DNA of 20,705 bases. It comes from a virus. Below the pieces are notes generated by a model. The model was not told the origin of the DNA. It saw only the letters and a program-made list of their open reading frames with translations, and searched no databases. The stretch is taken from UHGV virus genome UHGV-1358007, one strand, 5' to 3'. The position numbers and the translations under genes were made by a program. Positions 2,734 to 20,058 of this stretch are shown one piece after another (within the stretch, counting starts at the first letter, position 1; each line of letters starts with the position of its first letter).

Positions 2734-5700
2734 ATGGAACCCATATCAATTACAGTGGCAACTTATGTAGCAACTAAACTTATTGATCAATTCATCTCTC
2801 AAGAAGGATATGGTTGTATTAAGAAAGCATTATTCCCCCAAAAAAGATATGTGGATAGATTATATCAACTAATTGAAGAGACGGCAATTGAGTTTGAAGA
2901 AACATATCCAGTAGAAAGTGGAGCAATACCATTTTATCATTCCGAACCATTGTTTGAGATGTTGAATGAGCACATCTTTTTTAAAGAGTTCCCTGACAAA
3001 GAGATATTATTAGACAAGTTCAAAGAATATCCAAGTATCACTCCCCCAACTCAACAACAACTCAGCCTTTTTTATGAGATGTTATCATTAAAAATCAATA
3101 ATTGTTCGAAGTTAAAAAAGCTACATATCGAAGAAACGTATAAAGAAAAAATATTCGATATTAATGAAGAGCTCATTCAAGTCAAACTTATTTTACGGTC
3201 TATAGATGAGAAACTAACTTTTCACTTAAGTGATGATTGGTTAAATGAAAAAAATAGTCAAGCAATAGCTGACTTGGGAGGTCGATACACACCCGAACTC
3301 AACGTAAAGCTAGAAATAGCAGAGATATTTGATGGCCTCGGTAGAACTAATGATTTTTCTAAAATATTTTATTCGCATATAGATAGCTTTCTGGTCGCTG
3401 GAAAGAAATTACATAGTTGCGATGTAATTTCCTCAGAATTATTTGAAATAAACCAGTCCTTAAAAGAAATTTCTGATATATATCAGGAGATTAATTTTTC
3501 TAAATTAGATGAAATCCCTATAAATAAATTTAATAACTATGTTTCTAGCTGCCAGACAGCTATTGGCGGAGCGGTATCAATATTGTGGGAACTCCGAGAA
3601 AAGTCAGAGCAAGTAGGTGAAACCAAGCATTACAGTGATAAGTATTCATCTACTCTGCGAATGCTTCGGGAATTTGACTATGCGTGCAATGAATTACGTA
3701 TATTCATTAATTCAACAACAGTGAAGTTGGCTAACAACCCATTCTTACTTCTCGAAGGAAAAGCAGGAATTGGTAAGTCTCATTTACTGGCTGATGTGAT
3801 TAAAAATCGAATTGCTTCTGGGTATCCTTCACTACTCATACTAGGGCAACAACTTACTTCAGATGAATCTCCATGGTCACAAATCTTCAAGAGATTACAG
3901 CTTAAAATCACTTCTCGTGAATTCCTAGAAAAACTGAATTTATATGGCAAAAAAACAGGAAAAAGAGTCTTAGTTTTTATTGATGCTATTAATGAAGGTA
4001 ATGGAAATAAATTCTGGAATGACAATATTAACAGTTTTGTCGATGAAATCAGATGCTTTGAATGGCTTGGTCTGATAATGTCAGTCAGAACAACATATAG
4101 AAATGTAACAATTTCACATGAGAATGTTGTGCGAAATAATTTTGAAATTCATGAACATATTGGATTCCAGAACGTTGAGTTGGAAGCGGTTAGTCTATTT
4201 TATGATTATTACAATATTGAGAGGCCTTCATCTCCTAACCTTAATCCAGAGTTTAAAAATCCTCTATTTCTTAAGTTATTGTGTGAAGGCATTAAGAAAA
4301 ATGGTTTAACCAAAGTGCCTGTTGGATTTAATGGGATTTCAAATATTTTTAACTTTTTAGTTGAAGGGGTAAATAAATCATTAGCATCGCCAAAAAAATA
4401 TGCATTCGATCCCAGTTTTCCTCTTGTTAAAGATGCTCTCAATGAAATCATAAAATTCAAATTAGAGATTGGTCGTAATAGTATTTCACTTAAAGATGCT
4501 CACTCAGTGGTTCAATCTGTAGTTAATGATTATGTTGCTGATAAAACCTTCCTCAGCGCCTTGATTGACGAAGGATTATTGACTAAAGGCATAGTGAGAA
4601 ATGATGATAATTCTACTGAGGAAGTAGTTTATGTGGCTTTTGAAAGGTTTGATGATCATTTAACTGTTAATTTTTTATTAAATGATGTTGAAAATATCGA
4701 AAGTGAATTTAAGCCTGATGGTCGTCTGAAAAAATATTTTCATGATGAATGTGATTTTTATATAAAATCGGGAATAGTAGAGGCGTTGTCTATTCAATTG
4801 CCAGAAAGGTATGAAAAAGAGCTTTATGAATTTCTGCCGGAGTTCAGCAATAATCTTAAATTACTAGAAGCCTTTATTGATAGCTTGATATGGCGCGATA
4901 TTAAGGCTATTGATTTCGAAAAAATTAGACCTTTCATCAATGAACATGTTTTTAAATTTAAAGATAGTTTTGATCATTTCCTCGAGGCAGTGATCTCTAT
5001 TTCAGGTTTAGTTGGCCATCCCTTTAATGCTAATTTCTTGCATGATTGGCTAAAAGATTATTCTTTGGCAAATCGAGATTCGTTTTGGACTACAGAACTT
5101 AAATATAAATATAGTGAAGACTCAGCATTTAGGCATCTAATCGATTGGGCATGGGCCAGAACAGATAAAAGCTTTGTTTCGGATGAGTCAATCGAGCTAG
5201 TTGCAACTAGTTTATGCTGGTTTTTAACTTCTAGTAACCGAGAACTTCGAGATTGCTCAACTAAGGCTTTAGTGAGTTTACTCGAGCCAAGAATTCCTGT
5301 ATTGAGAAAAATAATTGATAAGTTTTATGGTGTAAATGATCCTTACGTTTGGGAAAGAATATTTGCAGTTGCATTAGGCTGTACATTGCGAACTGATAAT
5401 ATTAAAGAACTAAAATATTTAGCCGAAACTGTTTACCAAAAGGTATTTTGTTCTAAGTATGTGTATCCAAATATATTACTTAGAGATTATGCTAGAGAGA
5501 TTATTGAATTTGCTAATCATCTTGGATTGGAACTTGAAAGCATTGAATTATCCAAGACTAGACCACCCTACAACAGCATTTGGCCTGACAAGATTCCTTC
5601 AAAAGAGGAACTAGAGTCCCTTTATGATAAAGAACCTTATCGGGAACTCTGGAGCTCTATTATGGAAGATGGTGACTTTTCACGATATACTATTGGAACA

Positions 5701-7188
5701 AATTATAATCATTCTGATTGGTCTGGTTGCAAGTTTAATGAAACCCCTGTTGACCGTAAGCAAGTTTTTAAAACTTTCAAATGTAAACTAACTGATCAAC
5801 AAAAAGACTTGTATGATGCCACAGATCCTTTCATTTATGATGATAAATGCGAAGGAATTAAATTTGGTCGTGTGGTCGGTAGAAAAGCACAGGAAGAAAT
5901 AAAGGCGAGCAAGAAATTATTTAAGAATTCATTGTCATACGATCTGTTAAGTGAGTTTGAAAATGAAATAGAGCCATACCTGGATCATAATAATAATCTG
6001 CTGGAAACTGATAAACACTTTGATCTTCGACTAGCTCAACAATTTATATTCAATCGTGTTATAGAGCTTGGTTGGGATCCGGAGAAGCATGGTAATTTTG
6101 ACCAACAAATAGGAACTGGACGTGGACGTAGAGAGGCATTCCAAGAACGGATTGGTAAAAAATACCAATGGATTGCTTATTATGAATACATGGCAAGGCT
6201 AGCCGATAATTTTACTCGTTTTGAAGGTTATGGTGACGAACGAAAGGAAAATCCATACCAAGGGCCATGGGAGCCTTACGTAAGAGATATAGATCCCACT
6301 ATCTTACTTAAAGAAACTGGAACGAAAAAAATAAGCAATAAAGAAATGTGGTGGCTTAATGATGAAGTGTTTGATTGGACTTGCTCTAATGAAGACTGGG
6401 TTAAAAGTTCTACTACTATAACTAATTCATATGCTTTTATTGAAGTTAAAGATGATAATGGTGATGAATGGATAGTATTAGAAAGTCATCCATCATGGAA
6501 AGAACCAAAAATTATTGGAAACGATGATTGGGGGCACCCACGAAAAGAGGTTTGGTATCAGATCAGAAGTTATATCGTTAAAGTTGAAGAATTTGAAAAT
6601 TTTAGATGTTGGGCAATAGCTCAAGACTTTATGGGCAGGTGGATGCCGGAATGTACTGATAGATACCAATTATTTAATAGGGAGTACTATTGGTCCGAAG
6701 CATTTAAGTCTTTTAAATCAGATTATTATGGTGGATCTGACTGGACTTCGGTAACAGACCGGGAGTCTGGAGCTAAGATAGCTGATGTTAGTGTCACTTC
6801 GATTAATTATTTGTGGGAAGAGGAGTTCGACAAATCAAAAATAGAAACTTTGAATTTTTTGAAGCCTAGTAACTTAATCTTTGAAAAGATGGGATTAAAA
6901 AGTGGGGAAGTAGAGGGTAGCTTCAATGATGAAAATGGAACTATGGTTTGCTTTGCAGCTGAAGCTGTATATGCTTCAAAGCCGCATCTACTTGTTAAAA
7001 AAGAACCATTTTTAACAATGTTAAGGGACAATGGTTTTGAAATCGTTTGGACATTATTAGGTGAAAAGGGCGTTATAGGGGGCTCACTCATATCAAGTCA
7101 TCATTATGGTCGACAGGAGTTTAGTGGAGCATTTTATTATGAAGACAGTCAGCTAACAGGAAGTCATAAAACTAGCTTTACGAGATAA
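2734..7188 (+). CDS. Large NACHT/STAND-like P-loop NTPase (1484 aa); candidate single-gene anti-phage defense protein with unassigned N- and C-terminal domains
   Basis: Uninterrupted 4455-nt ORF with RBS ggaagaag upstream of ATG; Walker A GKAGIGKS (nt 3757-3780); Walker B-like VLVFIDAINE; MSVRTT and HIGFQNVELEAVSLFYDYY resembling NACHT sensor and GF motifs; AT-rich versus flanks. Confidence 0.8.
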   Translation: MEPISITVATYVATKLIDQFISQEGYGCIKKALFPQKRYVDRLYQLIEETAIEFEETYPVESGAIPFYHSEPLFEMLNEHIFFKEFPDKEILLDKFKEYPSITPPTQQQLSLFYEMLSLKINNCSKLKKLHIEETYKEKIFDINEELIQVKLILRSIDEKLTFHLSDDWLNEKNSQAIADLGGRYTPELNVKLEIAEIFDGLGRTNDFSKIFYSHIDSFLVAGKKLHSCDVISSELFEINQSLKEISDIYQEINFSKLDEIPINKFNNYVSSCQTAIGGAVSILWELREKSEQVGETKHYSDKYSSTLRMLREFDYACNELRIFINSTTVKLANNPFLLLEGKAGIGKSHLLADVIKNRIASGYPSLLILGQQLTSDESPWSQIFKRLQLKITSREFLEKLNLYGKKTGKRVLVFIDAINEGNGNKFWNDNINSFVDEIRCFEWLGLIMSVRTTYRNVTISHENVVRNNFEIHEHIGFQNVELEAVSLFYDYYNIERPSSPNLNPEFKNPLFLKLLCEGIKKNGLTKVPVGFNGISNIFNFLVEGVNKSLASPKKYAFDPSFPLVKDALNEIIKFKLEIGRNSISLKDAHSVVQSVVNDYVADKTFLSALIDEGLLTKGIVRNDDNSTEEVVYVAFERFDDHLTVNFLLNDVENIESEFKPDGRLKKYFHDECDFYIKSGIVEALSIQLPERYEKELYEFLPEFSNNLKLLEAFIDSLIWRDIKAIDFEKIRPFINEHVFKFKDSFDHFLEAVISISGLVGHPFNANFLHDWLKDYSLANRDSFWTTELKYKYSEDSAFRHLIDWAWARTDKSFVSDESIELVATSLCWFLTSSNRELRDCSTKALVSLLEPRIPVLRKIIDKFYGVNDPYVWERIFAVALGCTLRTDNIKELKYLAETVYQKVFCSKYVYPNILLRDYAREIIEFANHLGLELESIELSKTRPPYNSIWPDKIPSKEELESLYDKEPYRELWSSIMEDGDFSRYTIGTNYNHSDWSGCKFNETPVDRKQVFKTFKCKLTDQQKDLYDATDPFIYDDKCEGIKFGRVVGRKAQEEIKASKKLFKNSLSYDLLSEFENEIEPYLDHNNNLLETDKHFDLRLAQQFIFNRVIELGWDPEKHGNFDQQIGTGRGRREAFQERIGKKYQWIAYYEYMARLADNFTRFEGYGDERKENPYQGPWEPYVRDIDPTILLKETGTKKISNKEMWWLNDEVFDWTCSNEDWVKSSTTITNSYAFIEVKDDNGDEWIVLESHPSWKEPKIIGNDDWGHPRKEVWYQIRSYIVKVEEFENFRCWAIAQDFMGRWMPECTDRYQLFNREYYWSEAFKSFKSDYYGGSDWTSVTDRESGAKIADVSVTSINYLWEEEFDKSKIETLNFLKPSNLIFEKMGLKSGEVEGSFNDENGTMVCFAAEAVYASKPHLLVKKEPFLTMLRDNGFEIVWTLLGEKGVIGGSLISSHHYGRQEFSGAFYYEDSQLTGSHKTSFTR

Positions 7189-9022: not shown

Positions 9023-9327
9023 TATTTCACCTCTTGTTGTGACATTGTTGAAAAATGGATACCTGCTCGTTGCTGCCAGACGATCCAACCGAGAGTCATA
9101 TCCCATGCCATGTATTCGTTATCGCCGTTTTTTGCTCTCCGACGATCTACTAAGTCACCGAAACGCTTTTCCATGAATAATTCATAAGCTTCGCGTTCAT
9201 CTGGTTCTACTTCCAGAGATAGGAGTGCGATTTCATAAGCACGGCGCTCAATATCGTCTCGCACGTCAAGGCTGCTGATACGCTCTTTAATTTCTTTAAT
9301 CAGTTCTTTGTCGGTAAAAGTGGTCAT
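9022..9327 (-). CDS. Hypothetical early-left protein (101 aa, acidic)
   Basis: ORF translationally coupled to xis and the upstream gene; similar in size and order to yfdT-like genes of enterobacterial prophages (from memory). Confidence 0.6.
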   Translation of the reverse strand: MTTFTDKELIKEIKERISSLDVRDDIERRAYEIALLSLEVEPDEREAYELFMEKRFGDLVDRRRAKNGDNEYMAWDMTLGWIVWQQRAGIHFSTMSQQEVK

Positions 9328-9689
9328 TATGCTCCAGCCTCCGGTGCTTTTGGCATTACTGCCCAGTGAGTGATATTGACGTTTTCAAGGTCCCCGACCT
9401 GAAATGTCCACTGCCATTCTCCGGTTTCTTTTTGTCCCCAGGTGTACCAGAGAGAACGCCAGCCAATTAGCCAGCCTTCTCCGTTAGCATCGAATAACAA
9501 AACACTTTCATTTGCTGGTGGCAGTTCAGTTGACACTGGTATTACTTTGTTTTCCTGTGCTGCACATTTAGCTTCAAGCGCATCGAATTTACGCACCAGG
9601 TATTCAGCATCTGTTTCATTCACTTTCAGATCTCGCGGTACACATCTCCCACGAAGAAACCCTTCCATTTCGAAAACATTCATGCGCAT
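9327..9689 (-). CDS. Hypothetical early-left protein (120 aa)
   Basis: ORF in operon context; ATGA overlap with downstream gene. Confidence 0.6.
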   Translation of the reverse strand: MRMNVFEMEGFLRGRCVPRDLKVNETDAEYLVRKFDALEAKCAAQENKVIPVSTELPPANESVLLFDANGEGWLIGWRSLWYTWGQKETGEWQWTFQVGDLENVNITHWAVMPKAPEAGA

Positions 9690-10216
9690 TTGCGTAACTC
9701 CGATAACTCGTTAAAACGTTCCATAAACATCCCGTAGGCATGGCCCGGTGCCTGTGGAATCACTTTGAACATCTCTGTTGCCGGGATACCTTCCAGTACA
9801 GGCCAGAAAGAGCCATCATCAAGCCCGAGATCGCGGCGTTCGGTTGCCAGCATAATGAGATCGGCATATTTCACTGGCGTGCTCATAACAGGAGGTAACC
9901 CGTATTTCTCACGGATTACGGCGTCTATTTTTTCTTCCATCCGTTTATAGTCAGGAAGAAGTCGTTTCAGTGGTGCGGGGATGTCCTGGCAATATGCTTC
10001 TGTTGCATCATGCATTAAAGCTTCAAAAGCAAATTCCTGTGGCACCAGCTGGCTGCAAAGCACCGCATGTTGGGCGACACTGTAGAAGTGTGAAAGATGT
10101 CCTGCAAAGCGACAGATATTTGAAAGGGAAACCGCGATATCGTTAATAACGATGTCGTCTTTATTTATCCTGTCATAATAAAAATGCTTCCCGGAAAAAG
10201 TTTTAATAAATGACAT
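9680..10216 (-). CDS. HD-domain phosphohydrolase (YfdR-like 5'-deoxynucleotidase family), 178 aa from internal ATG
   Basis: H...HD motif (SVAQHAVLC ... LMHDATEAY); ggagaa RBS 7 nt before ATG at 10216; the ORF track's longer start at 10243 lacks an RBS. Confidence 0.75.
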   Translation of the reverse strand: MSFIKTFSGKHFYYDRINKDDIVINDIAVSLSNICRFAGHLSHFYSVAQHAVLCSQLVPQEFAFEALMHDATEAYCQDIPAPLKRLLPDYKRMEEKIDAVIREKYGLPPVMSTPVKYADLIMLATERRDLGLDDGSFWPVLEGIPATEMFKVIPQAPGHAYGMFMERFNELSELRKCA

Positions 10217-16221: not shown

Positions 16222-17217
16222 GTGACCGTGAGAGCACTATTGACCCCTGAAATTGCCCCGCGTATGGGGATCGTATTGTTCAGACCAGGTTCAGAGCTGA
16301 TGCCCCTGTTTATGCAGGGGCGTATCCTGCTGGAGCCTGAGCCGGAACGTTATTCATCTTTCGCCAGTGGTGCCGTTCCGGCGGCATCACAACCGCTGGC
16401 GGATGATCCTGCCGTTCGGGCCGTGTTCCGCAATGAGGCAGTGATCCGTCGTGCTGGTGGCGTGGAATGTCTTGAAAGCTGGTTACTTCGTGAAAAAGGC
16501 TGCCAGTGGCCTCATTCCGACTGGCACAGCGAGAACATGACCACAATGCGACACGCTCCGGGTGCAATCCGTCTGTGCTGGCACTGCGATAACCAGCTGC
16601 GCGATCAGTTCACGGAACGGCTGGAATCAATGGCAACGGATAACTGTGCCCGCTGGGTGTTGTCTGTTGTGCGTCGGGATCTCGGTTTTGATGACAGTCA
16701 CGTTGTGACAATGCCGGAACTGTGCTGGTGGCTGATTCGTAATGATCTGGCGGATGCCTTACCGGAAAGTGCAGCCCGTAAGGCACTGAGATTACCGAAG
16801 CCTGTTGTGCCGTCTGTTACCCGGGAAAGTGACCTTGTGCCTTCGGTTCCTGCCACCAGCATCATCCAGGATAAGGCGAAAAAGGTGCTGGCGCTGAAAG
16901 TGGATCCGGAGTCGCCGGAGTCTTTTATGTTACGCCCAAAACGTCGCCGCTGGGTTAATGAAAAGTACACGCGCTGGGTTAAGACACAGCCGTGTGCATG
17001 TTGTGGAAAGCCCGCTGATGATCCCCACCACCTGATAGGTCACGGTCAGGGTGGAATGGGAACAAAAGCGCATGACCTTTTTGTGTTGCCTTTGTGCAGA
17101 AAGCATCACGACGAGCTGCATGCAGATACCGTGGCATTTGAAGAGAAGTATGGCTCCCAACTGGAGCTGATATTTCGTTTTATCGATCGTGTGCTGGCAA
17201 TTGGCGTACTGGCCTGA
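16222..17217 (+). CDS. Nin-region protein with C-terminal HNH-like Cys/His motif (DUF968/YdfU-like), 331 aa
   Basis: C-terminal CACCGKPADDPHHLIGHGQGG...CRKHHDELH; GTG start 1 nt after upstream stop. Confidence 0.7.
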   Translation: MTVRALLTPEIAPRMGIVLFRPGSELMPLFMQGRILLEPEPERYSSFASGAVPAASQPLADDPAVRAVFRNEAVIRRAGGVECLESWLLREKGCQWPHSDWHSENMTTMRHAPGAIRLCWHCDNQLRDQFTERLESMATDNCARWVLSVVRRDLGFDDSHVVTMPELCWWLIRNDLADALPESAARKALRLPKPVVPSVTRESDLVPSVPATSIIQDKAKKVLALKVDPESPESFMLRPKRRRWVNEKYTRWVKTQPCACCGKPADDPHHLIGHGQGGMGTKAHDLFVLPLCRKHHDELHADTVAFEEKYGSQLELIFRFIDRVLAIGVLA

Positions 17218-17234
17218 TTTTGTGGAGAAAGTTG

Positions 17235-17597
17235 ATGCGTGATATTCAAATGGTTCTGGATCGTTGGGGAGCATGGGCGGCGAGTGATAGTTCAGGAGTT
17301 GACTATTCTCCTATAGCTGCTGGGTTTAAAGGGCTTCTTCCCTATACAAGCAAAACACGTCAGGCTTGTTCAGATAGTGATGCATTAATTCTTGAAGGTT
17401 GTCTTGCTCGTCTAAAGCAAAAAAGGCCGGACGAACATTCGCTTCTTGTTGCCCATTACCTATTCGGTATCTCTAAAAGAAAGCTCGCCAAGGCTCGTAA
17501 AAAGGATGAGAAATTAATACGCATTGAGATACAGATGGCTGAGGGATTTATCGATGGTTGCCTTAGTATGCTCGATATACGTTTAGAATGTGAATAG
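17235..17597 (+). CDS. Q: Late antiterminator Q (short phage-82/DLP12 QuuD-type, about 120 aa)
   Basis: MRDIQMVLDRWGAWAA... resembles QuuD as I remember it; RBS ggagaaag before ATG at 17235; lies upstream of the lysis cassette. Confidence 0.8.
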   Translation: MRDIQMVLDRWGAWAASDSSGVDYSPIAAGFKGLLPYTSKTRQACSDSDALILEGCLARLKQKRPDEHSLLVAHYLFGISKRKLAKARKKDEKLIRIEIQMAEGFIDGCLSMLDIRLECE

Positions 17598-17603
17598 ATA
17601 CAA

Positions 17604-17631
17604 CAACGGCTCTTAGAGAGCCGTTGTTTTT
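17604..17631 (+). terminator. Rho-independent terminator just downstream of Q (stem caacggctc/gagccgttg, loop ttaga, T-tract)
   Basis: 9-bp perfect stem and ttttt tract read directly. Confidence 0.5.
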
Positions 17632-17801
17632 AGAAACTGTTTTTTATGACTGAACCTGTGGTGCAACTTAAAAAGTTACTGTAGCCATTGACGCCATTGT
17701 TGCTTGTTTTTTGAGCAGTGGATGGAATGCTTGCTGGCTTAGGCGCAGCTGTAGTTGTATGCCTGTTAGTATAGACTACAAAGTTACCTGTAGATGATTT
17801 G

Positions 17802-18797
17802 TTATCCATGTCGAGCCCACCCCTCTGAGATAAGGTTATGATTTATGCCGAACTGACCTGGGACGCCTGGAACTTGCAAACGCTGTAACATCCCCTCAGT
17901 GCGGAATTGATATGAAAACGTGTCTGGAGCCTCTAAAATGCTTCTGACAGATACGTACGATGCCTGGTTAACTGTTCCTAAGATAGCATTTGGGTCAAAA
18001 GGTTCACCCAGATGCATCTCAGTTTTGAAATCTTCATAAATTTCTTTGATCAGACCGTAAAGGTGCTCATCTGGTTTTTCCACCGTAAGACCTAAATCGT
18101 TTACCGCTTCAATCCTATTTATAGTGTAGTCATGGCTACCAGAATCACTACAAAGGAAACTTACAATTTTCTCAATGCTTTCACTATCAGTGAGTTGGTG
18201 AGACAGTAGTTTTCTTGCGAGCATTTGAATCTGCGCTTTAGCTCGATAGACTTTTCCAAGTACCAAGGGATGAACCTTTTCACTTAATGCAAGGAGGATC
18301 TGTGCAAGTGAGGCATCATCTTTGATACTCAAATCATGCTTAACTACTTCAAGATAGCCATTGATTTCTTCAACACTGACTGGAAGTTGAAGTGGCTGCC
18401 CATTGATTATGACCGAAGGGTTAAGTGGTGTATTCACACTTGGATCGATTGGCCCTAAGGTTGCCTGCTTGGTCATAACCAAGTTGTTCGCGCCAAGGCA
18501 CATTATCGTCCCAGAACTATGGCATTTTGATGGGATTATGATTTCGAGTTCTTTACAAAACTGACGAAGCAGGTTTACAAGGCTCCATGCTGTTAAAGTG
18601 TCGCCGCCTCGCGTATAGAGCACGAGGCTAATTTTTTGAACATCACCTATCACATCAAGATGATTGACGAACAGATCGAATACATCAGCGCTGATTTGAG
18701 CTTCTTGGTTTGGTCTATCACCTGTTACATAGCATAATACTTTTGAATTGCGTGCTTGTTCCAGTTGCGCATACAGGGCTTTACGCTGCTCAAACAT
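17802..18797 (-). CDS. Clp-fold serine protease of the SDH/S49 (SppA-like) family, 331 aa; moron encoded antisense to late transcription
   Basis: Motifs LVLYTRGGDTLTAWSL, KCHSSGTIMCLGAN and ATLGPIDPS resemble ClpP/SppA/SDH peptidase signatures; lower GC than phage genes; opposite strand between Q and holin. Confidence 0.75.
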   Translation of the reverse strand: MFEQRKALYAQLEQARNSKVLCYVTGDRPNQEAQISADVFDLFVNHLDVIGDVQKISLVLYTRGGDTLTAWSLVNLLRQFCKELEIIIPSKCHSSGTIMCLGANNLVMTKQATLGPIDPSVNTPLNPSVIINGQPLQLPVSVEEINGYLEVVKHDLSIKDDASLAQILLALSEKVHPLVLGKVYRAKAQIQMLARKLLSHQLTDSESIEKIVSFLCSDSGSHDYTINRIEAVNDLGLTVEKPDEHLYGLIKEIYEDFKTEMHLGEPFDPNAILGTVNQASYVSVRSILEAPDTFSYQFRTEGMLQRLQVPGVPGQFGINHNLISEGWARHG

Positions 18798-19251
18798 TCA
18801 GATGTCCTTATGTTAAGAATTTTCAAACCAAGAGGTAACATTCATTCAGAACTTACCACACAAGTGGTTAGATTCTATCGGCAAAAAAAGTCCAAAAATT
18901 AGCGCATTTACAAAACTCAAAGAGAGCAATGAGATTTTGCAAACGTACAGTGTGGATAACTTATGTGCAAAGTGGCGTTGATTTTACTCATTCGCTTCAA
19001 AAAAACCATAGTTTTCCTCACGCGGTCCGCATTTTATCGTGTAATCTGTTAAGAGTGGTTACTTCGCCACACAGCTTAAACCTGCCGTCGAGCGGGTTTT
19101 GTCATTTCTGGGCCTTGGTATTCGTTGGGCTTGGTCTATCTAGCACTTATCCATTGGCTCGGCTTCTTTTACGTTTCCGCTTCTGGTTTGCGGTTCGTGG
19201 TACTCCCTCAATTTGCACCTCCTGTATCGGCGAGGTGAGAGATAACTACAA

Positions 19252-19578
19252 ATGCCTCATAACCCAAATACCTGGCTGGAGTTGGTCCAGAGCTGGTGGC
19301 GTGGAGACACACCGCTGGGCGCAGTGATTATGTCGATCGTTATGGCTGGCTTGCGCATTGCCTATTTTGGCGGTGGTGGTGGCTGGAAACGAAAAACGCT
19401 CGAGATTTTGCTCTGTGGTGCTCTGACGCTGACTTTTGCATCCGCTCTTGAGTATGTCGGATGGCCTAAATCTCTTTCTGTTGCCATTGGTGGCGGCGTT
19501 GGGCTGATCGGGGTCGATGCTATTCGTGGGGCTGCAATGAGAGTAATCGGTAATAAGTTTGGTGGCTCTAAGGAGTAA
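19252..19578 (+). CDS. Holin (class I, three predicted TM segments), 108 aa
   Basis: RBS gaggtga; hydrophobic segments and charged C-terminus; directly precedes endolysin; not identical to lambda S. Confidence 0.8.
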   Translation: MPHNPNTWLELVQSWWRGDTPLGAVIMSIVMAGLRIAYFGGGGGWKRKTLEILLCGALTLTFASALEYVGWPKSLSVAIGGGVGLIGVDAIRGAAMRVIGNKFGGSKE

Positions 19579-19581
19579 TTT

Positions 19582-20058
19582 ATGCAGGTACTAAATTCCC
19601 AGCGTAAAGCTTTCCTGGATATGGTGGCATGGTCAGAAGGAACGGATAACGGGCGACAACCGACACGTAACCACGGTTATGACGTTATTGTCGGTGGCGA
19701 ACTCTTCACTGATTACTCCGATCACCCTCGAAAACTTGTCACGCTAAACCCGAAACTCAAATCAACAGCCGCAGGCCGTTATCAACTTCTTTCACGCTGG
19801 TGGGATGCTTACCGCAAGCAGTTAGGGCTGACAGACTTCTCTCCTAAAAGCCAGGACGCTGTTGCATTGCAGCAGATTAAGGAGCGTGGCGCTTTACTAA
19901 TGATTGATCGCGGTGACATCCGTCAGGCAATCGACCGTTGCAGCAATATCTGGGCCTCATTGCCGGGCGCTGGTTATGGTCAGTTCGAGCATAAGGCTGA
20001 CAGTCTGATTTCAAAATTCAAAGAAGCAGGCGGAACGGTCAGAGAGATTGAGGCATGA
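19582..20058 (+). CDS. R: Endolysin, lambda R-type lytic transglycosylase (158 aa)
   Basis: [47 protein letters not shown]... nearly identical to lambda R as I remember it. Confidence 0.95.

Follow-up and report, generated by a model that had tools for sequence, protein, structure and literature searches.

In TAC (toxin-antitoxin-chaperone) systems, as the papers concerned describe them, a portable third component recognises a short extension on the antitoxins of several unrelated toxin-antitoxin (TA) families, and these systems act in anti-phage defence (PMC5105189, 10.1101/2024.02.24.581848, PMC11618068). In the HigBA/MqsRA/HicAB-type TACs and in CmdTAC, the third component is a SecB-like chaperone and the extension is a C-terminal ChAD. 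Another TA and anti-phage module, IetAS, combines a toxic serine protease, IetS, with the AAA-ATPase IetA as its antitoxin (PMC13069673). The PanAT systems are built on Panacea (DUF4065) antitoxins, and SocA is known to be a ClpXP adaptor (PMC8832971); the main text of PMC8832971 and of PMC10440598 does not mention a Clp-fold or SDH protease among Panacea partners.

The locus analysed here lies in a 20,705-nt stretch of viral DNA (UHGV-1358007; hereafter, the window) that belongs to an E. coli lambdoid prophage, with the gene order integrase, early genes, RusA, KilA-N, DUF968, Q, holin, GH104 endolysin and Rz. Between Q and the holin gene, and antisense to both, it carries a two-gene module encoding a Clp-fold serine protease and a partner of about 60 aa. 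This module is analogous to TAC, not a member of it: where TAC has a SecB-like chaperone we find a Clp-fold protease with an intact active site, the extension (hereafter, the tag) is N-terminal instead of C-terminal, and, unlike TAC, protease and tag mostly form a two-gene unit without a classical toxin. If the protease is read as the toxin, the module resembles IetAS in having a serine protease as the toxic effector. However, IetS is subtilisin-like and its antitoxin is a large ATPase, whereas the window encodes a Clp-fold protease and a very small partner, and no sequence relationship between the window protease and IetS was found (no PADLOC match). In the same way, four of the loci described below have a partner with a Panacea domain, but the window partner lacks this domain. 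We found no precedent for the module in PADLOC, in the PHROG functions or in the literature searched, and the open-access literature yielded no paper in which an SDH or Clp-fold protease is part of a TA or defence system. The partner gene, the tag-antitoxin fusions and the Q-pR' hotspot reported here appear to be undescribed in the open-access literature that we searched.

A protease gene and its overlapping partner

The first-pass annotation of the window had placed a 331-aa gene antisense between Q and the lysis genes, and this arrangement was confirmed. The ORF occupies positions 17802-18797 on the minus strand and starts with ATG. The left flank of the cargo slot is the Q gene (17232-17597, plus strand), which encodes a short antiterminator and was identified by PGAP and by alignment with the Q proteins of SfII, Stx2a_1447 and cdtI; to the right of the slot, the first late gene encodes a lambda-family holin (19252-19578, plus strand). 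The ORF does contain every motif previously noted, with YTRGGD spanning residues 61-66, SSGT 94-97 and LGPIDP 114-119, and the GC content is indeed lower than that of the neighbouring genes, about 0.40-0.43 across 17500-19250 versus 0.50-0.57 in the flanks.

The assignment to the SDH-type Clp-fold serine proteases also held. In the Pfam profile search that the annotation had proposed, the SDH family PF01972 scored 54.2 bits, above its gathering cut-off of 31.3, with a good alignment only at profile positions 91-167 of 286. The NCBIfam equivalog NF047768 reached 69.5 bits against a cut-off of 250. Because this score is so far under the cut-off and PF01972 is aligned only in part, we assign the protein to a distinct, related SDH subfamily and do not regard it as an equivalog. 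Its name is not new, since PGAP already assigns it: a 1.9-kb stretch with the protease gene is found, identical, in 47 of 5,426 complete E. coli genomes, where the product is called 'SDH family Clp fold serine proteinase'. PHROG 11747 lists the protein as 'unknown function', and PADLOC-DB v2 has no family matching it at E<=1.

The protein adopts the alpha/beta fold of ClpP/crotonase peptidases (clan SK), and its nucleophile Ser occupies the conserved turn, the same position as in ClpP, SppA and the NfeD/STOPP protease 1510-N. In the predicted structure, about 130 aa form a helical insertion and the C-terminus folds into a three-stranded beta unit; the loop 219-221 has a pLDDT below 50. The candidate catalytic triad is S94/D118/H222, in the order Ser-Asp-His. 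These three residues are invariant in 153-155 of the 155 sequences compared, while H176 and K110 are less strict, each being replaced by Asn in 4 sequences. The invariant Ser-Asp-His order sets the protease apart from ClpP, which has the order Ser-His-Asp and an AAA+ unfoldase. hhalign against ClpP aligned only residues 7-97, and on a manual reading D118 would correspond to ClpP His122 and H222/D223 to ClpP Asp171. Unlike the membrane proteases NfeD and SppA, which use a Ser-Lys dyad, the window protease is soluble. There is a further likeness to NfeD, whose 1510-N cleaves stomatin, the product of its operon partner: the window protease has an operon partner as well.

Weak similarity to ClpP-related head maturation proteases was seen in PHROG and NCBIfam (E 1e-3 to 1e-6). 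A role as a head-maturation (prohead) protease is excluded, because an HK97 or ClpP-MCP prohead protease is already encoded elsewhere in the carrier phages; in addition, the gene lies antisense between Q and holin, away from the head genes.

At E<=1e-3 the protease has 4102 homologs. Its full-length relatives share 50-65% identity across phyla, with hosts among Proteobacteria, Bacteroidota, Firmicutes, Spirochaetes, Chloroflexi, Planctomycetes and Patescibacteria and in one Methanofastidiosum MAG. Together with a dN/dS of 0.02-0.08, this indicates that the ORF is not a chance frame. We identified 75 protease loci in IMG/VR proviruses, and a tblastn search of 50,697 deposited phage genomes gave no homolog. 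Two circular E. coli 'plasmids' of 43.7 kb turned out to be complete SfII/P27-type phages that carry the protease gene in the same slot and encode their own HK97 prohead protease. The module occurs in prophages, in defence islands beside R-M genes and on large plasmids, and a Pseudomonas homolog is located directly 3' of a cI-like repressor gene, on the same strand.

When the neighbours of 155 loci were clustered, no conserved large neighbour of the protease emerged. The outer neighbours are heterogeneous and include R-M enzymes, Vsr, RadC, portal, Mu and other phage genes, and integrases. The clustering did reveal many small clusters of 55-80-aa ORFs directly downstream of the protease and on the same strand. 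The corresponding gene in the window, which PGAP leaves unannotated, spans 17630-17809 on the minus strand and encodes a protein of 59 aa; it starts inside the protease gene, so that partner start and protease stop overlap by 8 nt (cATGGATAA). The protease has a nearly invariant EGW motif at its C-terminus, and the codons of E325-G326 contain GAGGGG (17820-17825, minus strand), 10 nt 5' of the partner ATG, which is a probable Shine-Dalgarno sequence for translational coupling of the partner.

A partner ORF is present in 138 of 138 diverse loci. The automatic criterion (an ORF of 55 aa or more on the same strand, with its start no more than 60 nt from the protease stop) detected 135 of them, and the other 3, which start further upstream, were found by inspection; the mode of partner length is 60-79 aa. 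The protease is thus no standalone peptidase, as had been supposed at first. A partner HMM was cross-validated by building it on genome-derived loci and running it on viral loci. The protease overlap was trimmed beforehand, because an alternative-frame reading of the EGW codons could mimic similarity. Among about 12,500 ORFs, 42 of the 60 matches fell on the downstream-adjacent position, and the window partner was the best-scoring ORF of its locus (E=0.018), aligned to the family HMM at motif 1.

The gene pair is universal in the loci compared and is under purifying selection. Within the E. coli group the partner has a dN/dS of 0.07-0.10 (one comparison shows 15 synonymous versus 6 non-synonymous changes), and outside it 0.06-0.33; measured by dN, the partner evolves about 5 times as fast as the protease. 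The partner family has no match in Pfam or PHROGs. Its consensus reads ..ETGSdvnYLNstSSSAp...SSaDPdSLsNImKNsIIIieN.., in which motif 1 is Phi-x-Y-x4-[ST][ST][SA] and motif 2 is SL-x-x-[IL][IM][KR]N; in the window partner, these are VVYTNRHTTTAAP and SVIKNSF, respectively. The product is rich in S, T and N and has no signal peptide and no TM or hydrophobic segment.

A prophage defence hotspot next to Q

The feature had originally been delimited as 17802-19251. This interval does contain the protease gene and its upstream non-coding region, but it omits the partner gene and a hairpin beyond it. Comparison of empty sites with filled slots places the cargo at about 17598-19021.

The right-hand boundary is a conserved, Q-linked element at 19022-19103 on the plus strand, probably comprising a Q-binding site, pR' and tR'. 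It consists of a palindromic GCGGTCCGCA box (19022-19031), -10-like hexamers, a 35-mer that does not vary (19048-19082) and, at 19078-19103, a hairpin with a T-run that resembles a terminator. The element is identical in the window, SfII, Stx2a_1447 and cdtI, while the Q proteins of these phages are only 49-90% identical to that of the window. A scan of IMG/VR with the 35-mer retrieved at least 119 contigs, and in 91 of the 93 that have at least 1.5 kb of upstream sequence, the same Q family is encoded upstream of the element. The site is empty in 24 contigs, where the element follows Q by about 30-65 nt, and filled in 77, where an insert of 0.5-3.8 kb separates the two. In SfII, Stx2a_1447, cdtI and phiP27, other genes lie between Q and the element.

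We propose that the element is the qut/pR'/tR' arrangement of lambdoid phages, since it adjoins Q, is strictly tied to one Q family and ends in a hairpin. We regard this as likely and rate it no higher because the -35 stayed indistinct when the -35/-10 candidates around 19011-19047 were inspected by hand and the hairpin is weak in the window (-10.3 kcal/mol, z -0.7). A simple scan gave no consensus sigma-70 promoter for pR' or for the module, and the papers on pR' of Stx phages and Stx2e do not map the promoter for this type of Q.

The other boundary lies close to the end of the module. A hairpin with a perfect 12-bp stem (17602-17628) lies 5 nt from the stop codon of Q, just beyond that of the partner; it folds with -18.2/-18.7 kcal/mol (z -5.6/-6.6) and is missing from empty sites. 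It is predicted to be a bidirectional terminator or insulator that belongs to the cargo. At the opposite end, 18798-19021 (minus strand) is a cargo-specific upstream region with the 5' UTR and the presumed promoter of the protease operon, and it has no counterpart in SfII, Stx2a_1447 or cdtI. Within it, 74 nt upstream of the protease ATG, lies the conserved box TTTTTTTGCCGATAGAAT (18872-18889, minus strand), made up of a T-run and GCCGATAGAAT. The box occurs in 8 of 27 related enterobacterial loci, compared with 0.43% of control windows, and may be the promoter of the module. No Rfam family was found in 17200-19700.

This architecture bears on two earlier suggestions. The first was that late, Q-dependent transcription runs antisense through the protease gene and silences it during lytic growth. 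However, the Q-linked element lies on the holin side of the cargo, a placement backed by the 91 of 93 contigs and the 24 empty sites described above, and late transcription most probably starts 3' of the cargo and is directed away from it. If the pR' assignment is right, the Q-dependent start is downstream of the cargo and the antisense-silencing mechanism fails. Early read-through from pR and Q, antisense into the cargo, is possible, with the strong 17602-17628 hairpin in its path. The second suggestion, that the cargo sits in the classic moron site of stx, also had to be given up: in Stx2a_1447 and phiP27 the stx operon is downstream of the element and the cargo here is upstream of it, in a different sub-slot.

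The inserts of the slot comprise 25 cargo architectures and 38 ORF families, 36 of which are antisense to Q. PADLOC models are matched by 6 of the 10 slot representatives. The matches include KwaB of Kiwa (2e-150), located beside a KwaA-like membrane partner, PDC-S20 (3e-177), PDC-M53A, PDC-M68A, PDC-S33 and an ATPase-Toprim/HEC-04 protein. The slot between Q and the late-promoter element is, therefore, a prophage defence hotspot. An OmpC-like porin was also seen among the cargos. Known prophage hotspots (P2/P4, and lambda rexAB behind cI) likewise consist of a fixed slot with interchangeable, mostly antisense defence cassettes. In contrast to those of P2/P4, this one lies between a short Q and the late-promoter element of SfII/P27/cdtI-type lambdoid phages, and the papers searched contained no description of it. 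The position of rexAB behind cI is matched by the Pseudomonas protease module behind its cI-like repressor. Since other prophages carry Kiwa and further PADLOC families in this slot and the Pseudomonas homolog follows a cI-like repressor, a defence or lysogen-expressed role of the protease module, which the first-pass annotation had raised, is plausible. Overall, what that annotation had observed was confirmed, and its interpretation was supported in part.

Third genes and fusions from toxin-antitoxin families

The protease and its partner are arranged like a type II TA gene pair: they are adjacent, co-directional and overlapping, co-occur in 138 of 138 loci and reside on mobile elements. A longer partner, of 83-205 aa, is encoded in 16 of the 138 loci, and behind it comes a third co-directional gene at a gap of -35 to +17 nt; about 88% of loci, the window included, have no third gene. 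Several of the third genes belong to known Pfam families, all above the gathering thresholds and separated from the partner by -16 to +3 nt. They encode PemK/MazF (91.6 bits in locus L087 and 45.7 bits in L132), PIN (46.5 bits, L055), YafQ (91.1 bits in L058 and 103.7 bits in L085) and Fic/Doc (70.6 bits, L078) proteins, and in L128 the third gene is closely homologous to the L087 toxin. In addition, the partner of four Clostridia and Succinivibrionaceae loci contains a SocA_Panacea antitoxin domain (68-74 bits), and the next gene in these loci encodes a conserved protein of about 107 aa without a Pfam family.

The long partners are related to the short ones through their N-termini. An HMM of the tag, trained only on the 110 short partners of two-gene loci, recognises the N-terminal 45-65 residues of long partners, with E-values of 3.8e-11 and 7.5e-9 in MazF loci, 3.1e-7 in the PIN locus, 3.3e-4 in the Doc locus and 3.3e-8 in L037. 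It gave no significant match in the YafQ, Panacea or L038-type partners. Apart from Panacea, no Pfam antitoxin domain was detected in the long partners. Their antitoxin role is suggested by position, because the partner is the sole ORF between protease and toxin. By eye, L038 and L044 appeared to have a HicA-like third gene and a HicB-like partner, and other long partners appeared to have antitoxin-like C-terminal tails; neither impression was borne out by Pfam.

The catalytic residues of the protease are intact in all 16 three-gene loci. The module exchanges components with established TA families, as seen in the toxins encoded by the third genes, in the Panacea domains and in the tag carried by the MazF, PIN and Doc partners.

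Possible functions of the module

We hypothesize, with a probability of about one half, that the module is a type II-like TA or abortive-infection system, with the protease as its toxin and the partner as its antitoxin. Its two genes, with their overlapping start codon, would encode a Ser-Asp-His Clp-fold protease and a small, fast-evolving, presumably disordered partner, and would come with their own upstream box and hairpin terminator. Inserted antisense, past the stop codon of Q and ahead of the late-promoter element, they are probably transcribed independently in the lysogen. In the mechanism that we propose, the conserved N-terminal tag of the partner, with motifs 1 and 2, would bind the protease and hold it harmless. 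The presumably labile partner could then be depleted or displaced, for example by phage host shut-off or by a supplied trigger, and the freed protease would cleave cellular or phage proteins, so that the infection is aborted. In the three-gene relatives the tag would be fused to a toxin-neutralising tail, and a single partner would connect a toxin of the MazF, PIN, Doc or YafQ family with the protease. We prefer this reading because it explains the self-sufficient, predominant two-gene form. Several points weigh against it: no precedent was found, Pfam recognises no antitoxin domain but Panacea in the long partners, the tag HMM gave no significant match in the YafQ, Panacea and L038-type partners, and the promoter scan yielded none for the module. 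Lacking an unfoldase, a protease of the ClpP fold may be restricted to peptides or disordered segments as substrates, so broad toxicity is less evident, and the three-gene loci fit a different explanation at least as well.

In that explanation, which we consider doubtful as a whole although it accounts best for the three-gene loci, the protease would be a dedicated trigger and the tag a degron or cleavage site, so that a signal leads to cleavage of the tagged partner. In the three-gene loci this would destroy the antitoxin and free MazF, PIN, Doc or YafQ; in the two-gene form, the cleaved partner, or a target in trans, would be the effector or regulator. The tag has been grafted at the antitoxin position of several unrelated toxin families, and in those loci the catalytic residues of the protease are fully conserved. 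There are parallels with TAC, in which one third component serves antitoxins of several families by recognising an extension that they carry, and with SocA/Panacea as a ClpXP adaptor (PMC8832971). The protease also has a relative, NfeD 1510-N, that cuts the stomatin encoded in its own operon. However, about 88% of loci have no third gene, and in the window the operon ends at the hairpin; under this explanation, the minimal form would have no evident effector and yet it spreads across phyla. Cleavage as a trigger and a toxic protease are compatible, because a pseudo-substrate inhibitor can also be slowly consumed.

A more general idea, which we put forward tentatively, is that the protease and the tag of about 45 residues make up a portable, ATPase-free 'plug-in' proteolytic switch, found in what could be called toxin-antitoxin-protease (TAP) immune modules, a new class with three components. 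Any protein bearing the tag might become a substrate or an inhibitor of the dedicated Clp-fold protease. The tag would then have been grafted onto the antitoxins of MazF, PIN, Doc and YafQ and onto Panacea-domain proteins, and the timing of toxin release could be set by the protease instead of host Lon or ClpXP, perhaps in response to a phage protein that it senses. The ancestral core might be the two-gene form seen in this E. coli prophage.

Other roles fit the data much less well. Counter-defence genes are commonly encoded by phages in accessory slots, and the module is carried by temperate phages; it could serve the phage, with an anti-defence or host-takeover protease and a small protein acting as its regulator or chaperone in lytic growth or establishment. 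We find this improbable. The module is antisense to the early and late phage transcription units and insulated from them, occupies a slot that also houses bona fide defence systems, has links to TA toxins, and occurs outside phages, beside R-M genes and on large plasmids, but in none of the 50,697 deposited phage genomes. It is slightly more improbable still that the small protein is a precursor from which the protease releases a signalling or antimicrobial peptide, as the presence of a small, conserved-motif protein beside a dedicated protease might suggest: it lacks a signal peptide and a TM segment, no exporter or modification genes are nearby, and the fusions to intracellular antitoxin modules and toxins favour a cytoplasmic regulatory role. 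Finally, a stand-alone moron protease or displaced head-maturation protease with the small ORF as a by-product, to which the weak similarity to head maturation proteases lends some colour, is scarcely credible and already contradicted, since the carriers already possess a prohead protease, the gene runs antisense at a distance from the head genes, and the partner is universal and under purifying selection.

If the reading of the protease as toxin and the partner as antitoxin is true, a function would be gained for a family of thousands of proteins, represented in the majority of bacterial phyla and in one or more archaeal MAGs, whose current labels are 'serine protease' or 'unknown function' only. 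As the small gene is universally missed, annotation pipelines drop half of the module. A self-encoded Clp-fold protease would also be an added mode of TA control and would bear on how antitoxin proteolysis is triggered, a question that the three-gene versions with MazF, PIN and Doc make testable. Moreover, a defence hotspot would be defined in SfII/P27/Stx-type lambdoid prophages, between Q and the late promoter. Several of its cargos have no known function and are candidate new defence genes, and the hotspot lies immediately 5' of the promoter region from which some Stx2 phages express stx.

Possible signals in and upstream of the protease-partner module

Inspection of the module, which comprises the SDH-type Clp-fold serine protease gene (17802-18797, minus strand) and its 59-aa partner gene (17630-17809, minus strand), revealed two short sequences of possible regulatory significance. 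The first, the box TTTTTTTGCCGATAGAAT, lies on the minus strand at 18872-18889, 74 nt 5' of the protease start codon. It was found in 8 of the 27 related enterobacterial modules, compared with 0.43% of the controls, and in the enterobacterial modules that share it the remaining upstream sequence is unrelated. This box is possibly a promoter or an operator. The second sequence, GAGGGGTGG (17820-17828, minus strand), encodes the E-G-W motif, which is almost invariant at the protease C-terminus. The same nucleotides are also the likely ribosome-binding site from which the overlapping partner gene is translated. The conservation of the E-G-W motif may stem partly from constraint on the RNA.

The conserved element after Q and the cargo of its slot

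Beyond the module lies a non-coding element (19022-19103) whose nucleotide sequence does not vary across more than 119 viral contigs (loci L164-L282), although the Q proteins adjoining it share just 49-90% identity. An Rfam search of window positions 17200-19700 returned no family for this element. The element is probably the qut/pR'/tR' of a short-Q family. Transcription from it could be terminated early to give a leader RNA some 50-60 nt long, analogous to StxS, an sRNA of other Stx phages (PMC7547250).

Several recurrent cargos of the slot between Q and this element in the same contigs had no match among the PADLOC models: a TM protein together with a 313-aa protein, of the cdtI orf53/54 type, in 18 contigs; a protein of 427 aa in 6; a zinc-ribbon protein of 391 aa in 5; and one of 339 aa in 2. 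We regard these PADLOC-negative recurrent cargos as candidates for new defence genes. Further slot cargo includes a 1,060-aa metallophosphatase/NTPase-like protein and an OmpC-like porin.

Third genes following long partners

Where long, tag-bearing partners precede a third co-directional gene, Pfam contained no family for the third genes of L062, L075, L077 and L086, of L037 and L080, of L038 and L044, or of L049. A conserved protein of 105-110 aa is the third gene 3' of the Panacea-fusion partners, and the third genes without a Pfam family measure 183 aa in Chloroflexi, 96 aa in Spirochaetes and 104 aa in Brachyspira. Judged by their position, the Pfam-less third genes are candidate new toxins.

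Genomes carrying the module and a second defence hotspot

In E. coli EJN001, downstream of the window-type prophage (L001, 25715-36109), an inserted element of about 10 kb splits the large-terminase gene of the prophage. Because it carries its own integrase, primase, SSB and a ClpP-like prohead protease/major capsid fusion, this element looks like a phage satellite. Two E. coli 'plasmids' of 43.7 kb, NZ_CP081794.1 and NZ_CP081704.1 (L283), are complete circular SfII/P27-type phage genomes, probably an excised or replicating prophage assembled as a plasmid; their additional cargo comprises a type II R-M pair and an acyltransferase. In one Ketobacteraceae genome (L013), a 286-aa protein is encoded at 9261-10118, 252 nt 3' of the protease-partner pair. 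It looked trypsin-like by eye (...GTGFFY...NYHVL...GMSGSP...) and would be a second protease beside the module.

In the window itself, next to the integrase gene (380-1612), a low-GC ORF (2734-7188, plus strand) encodes a 1,484-aa Avs2 antiviral STAND protein (PADLOC, 1752 bits). At the equivalent position the related prophage of EJN001 carries Dsr1 instead of Avs2; thus, the integrase-proximal end is a second defence hotspot of the window prophage.
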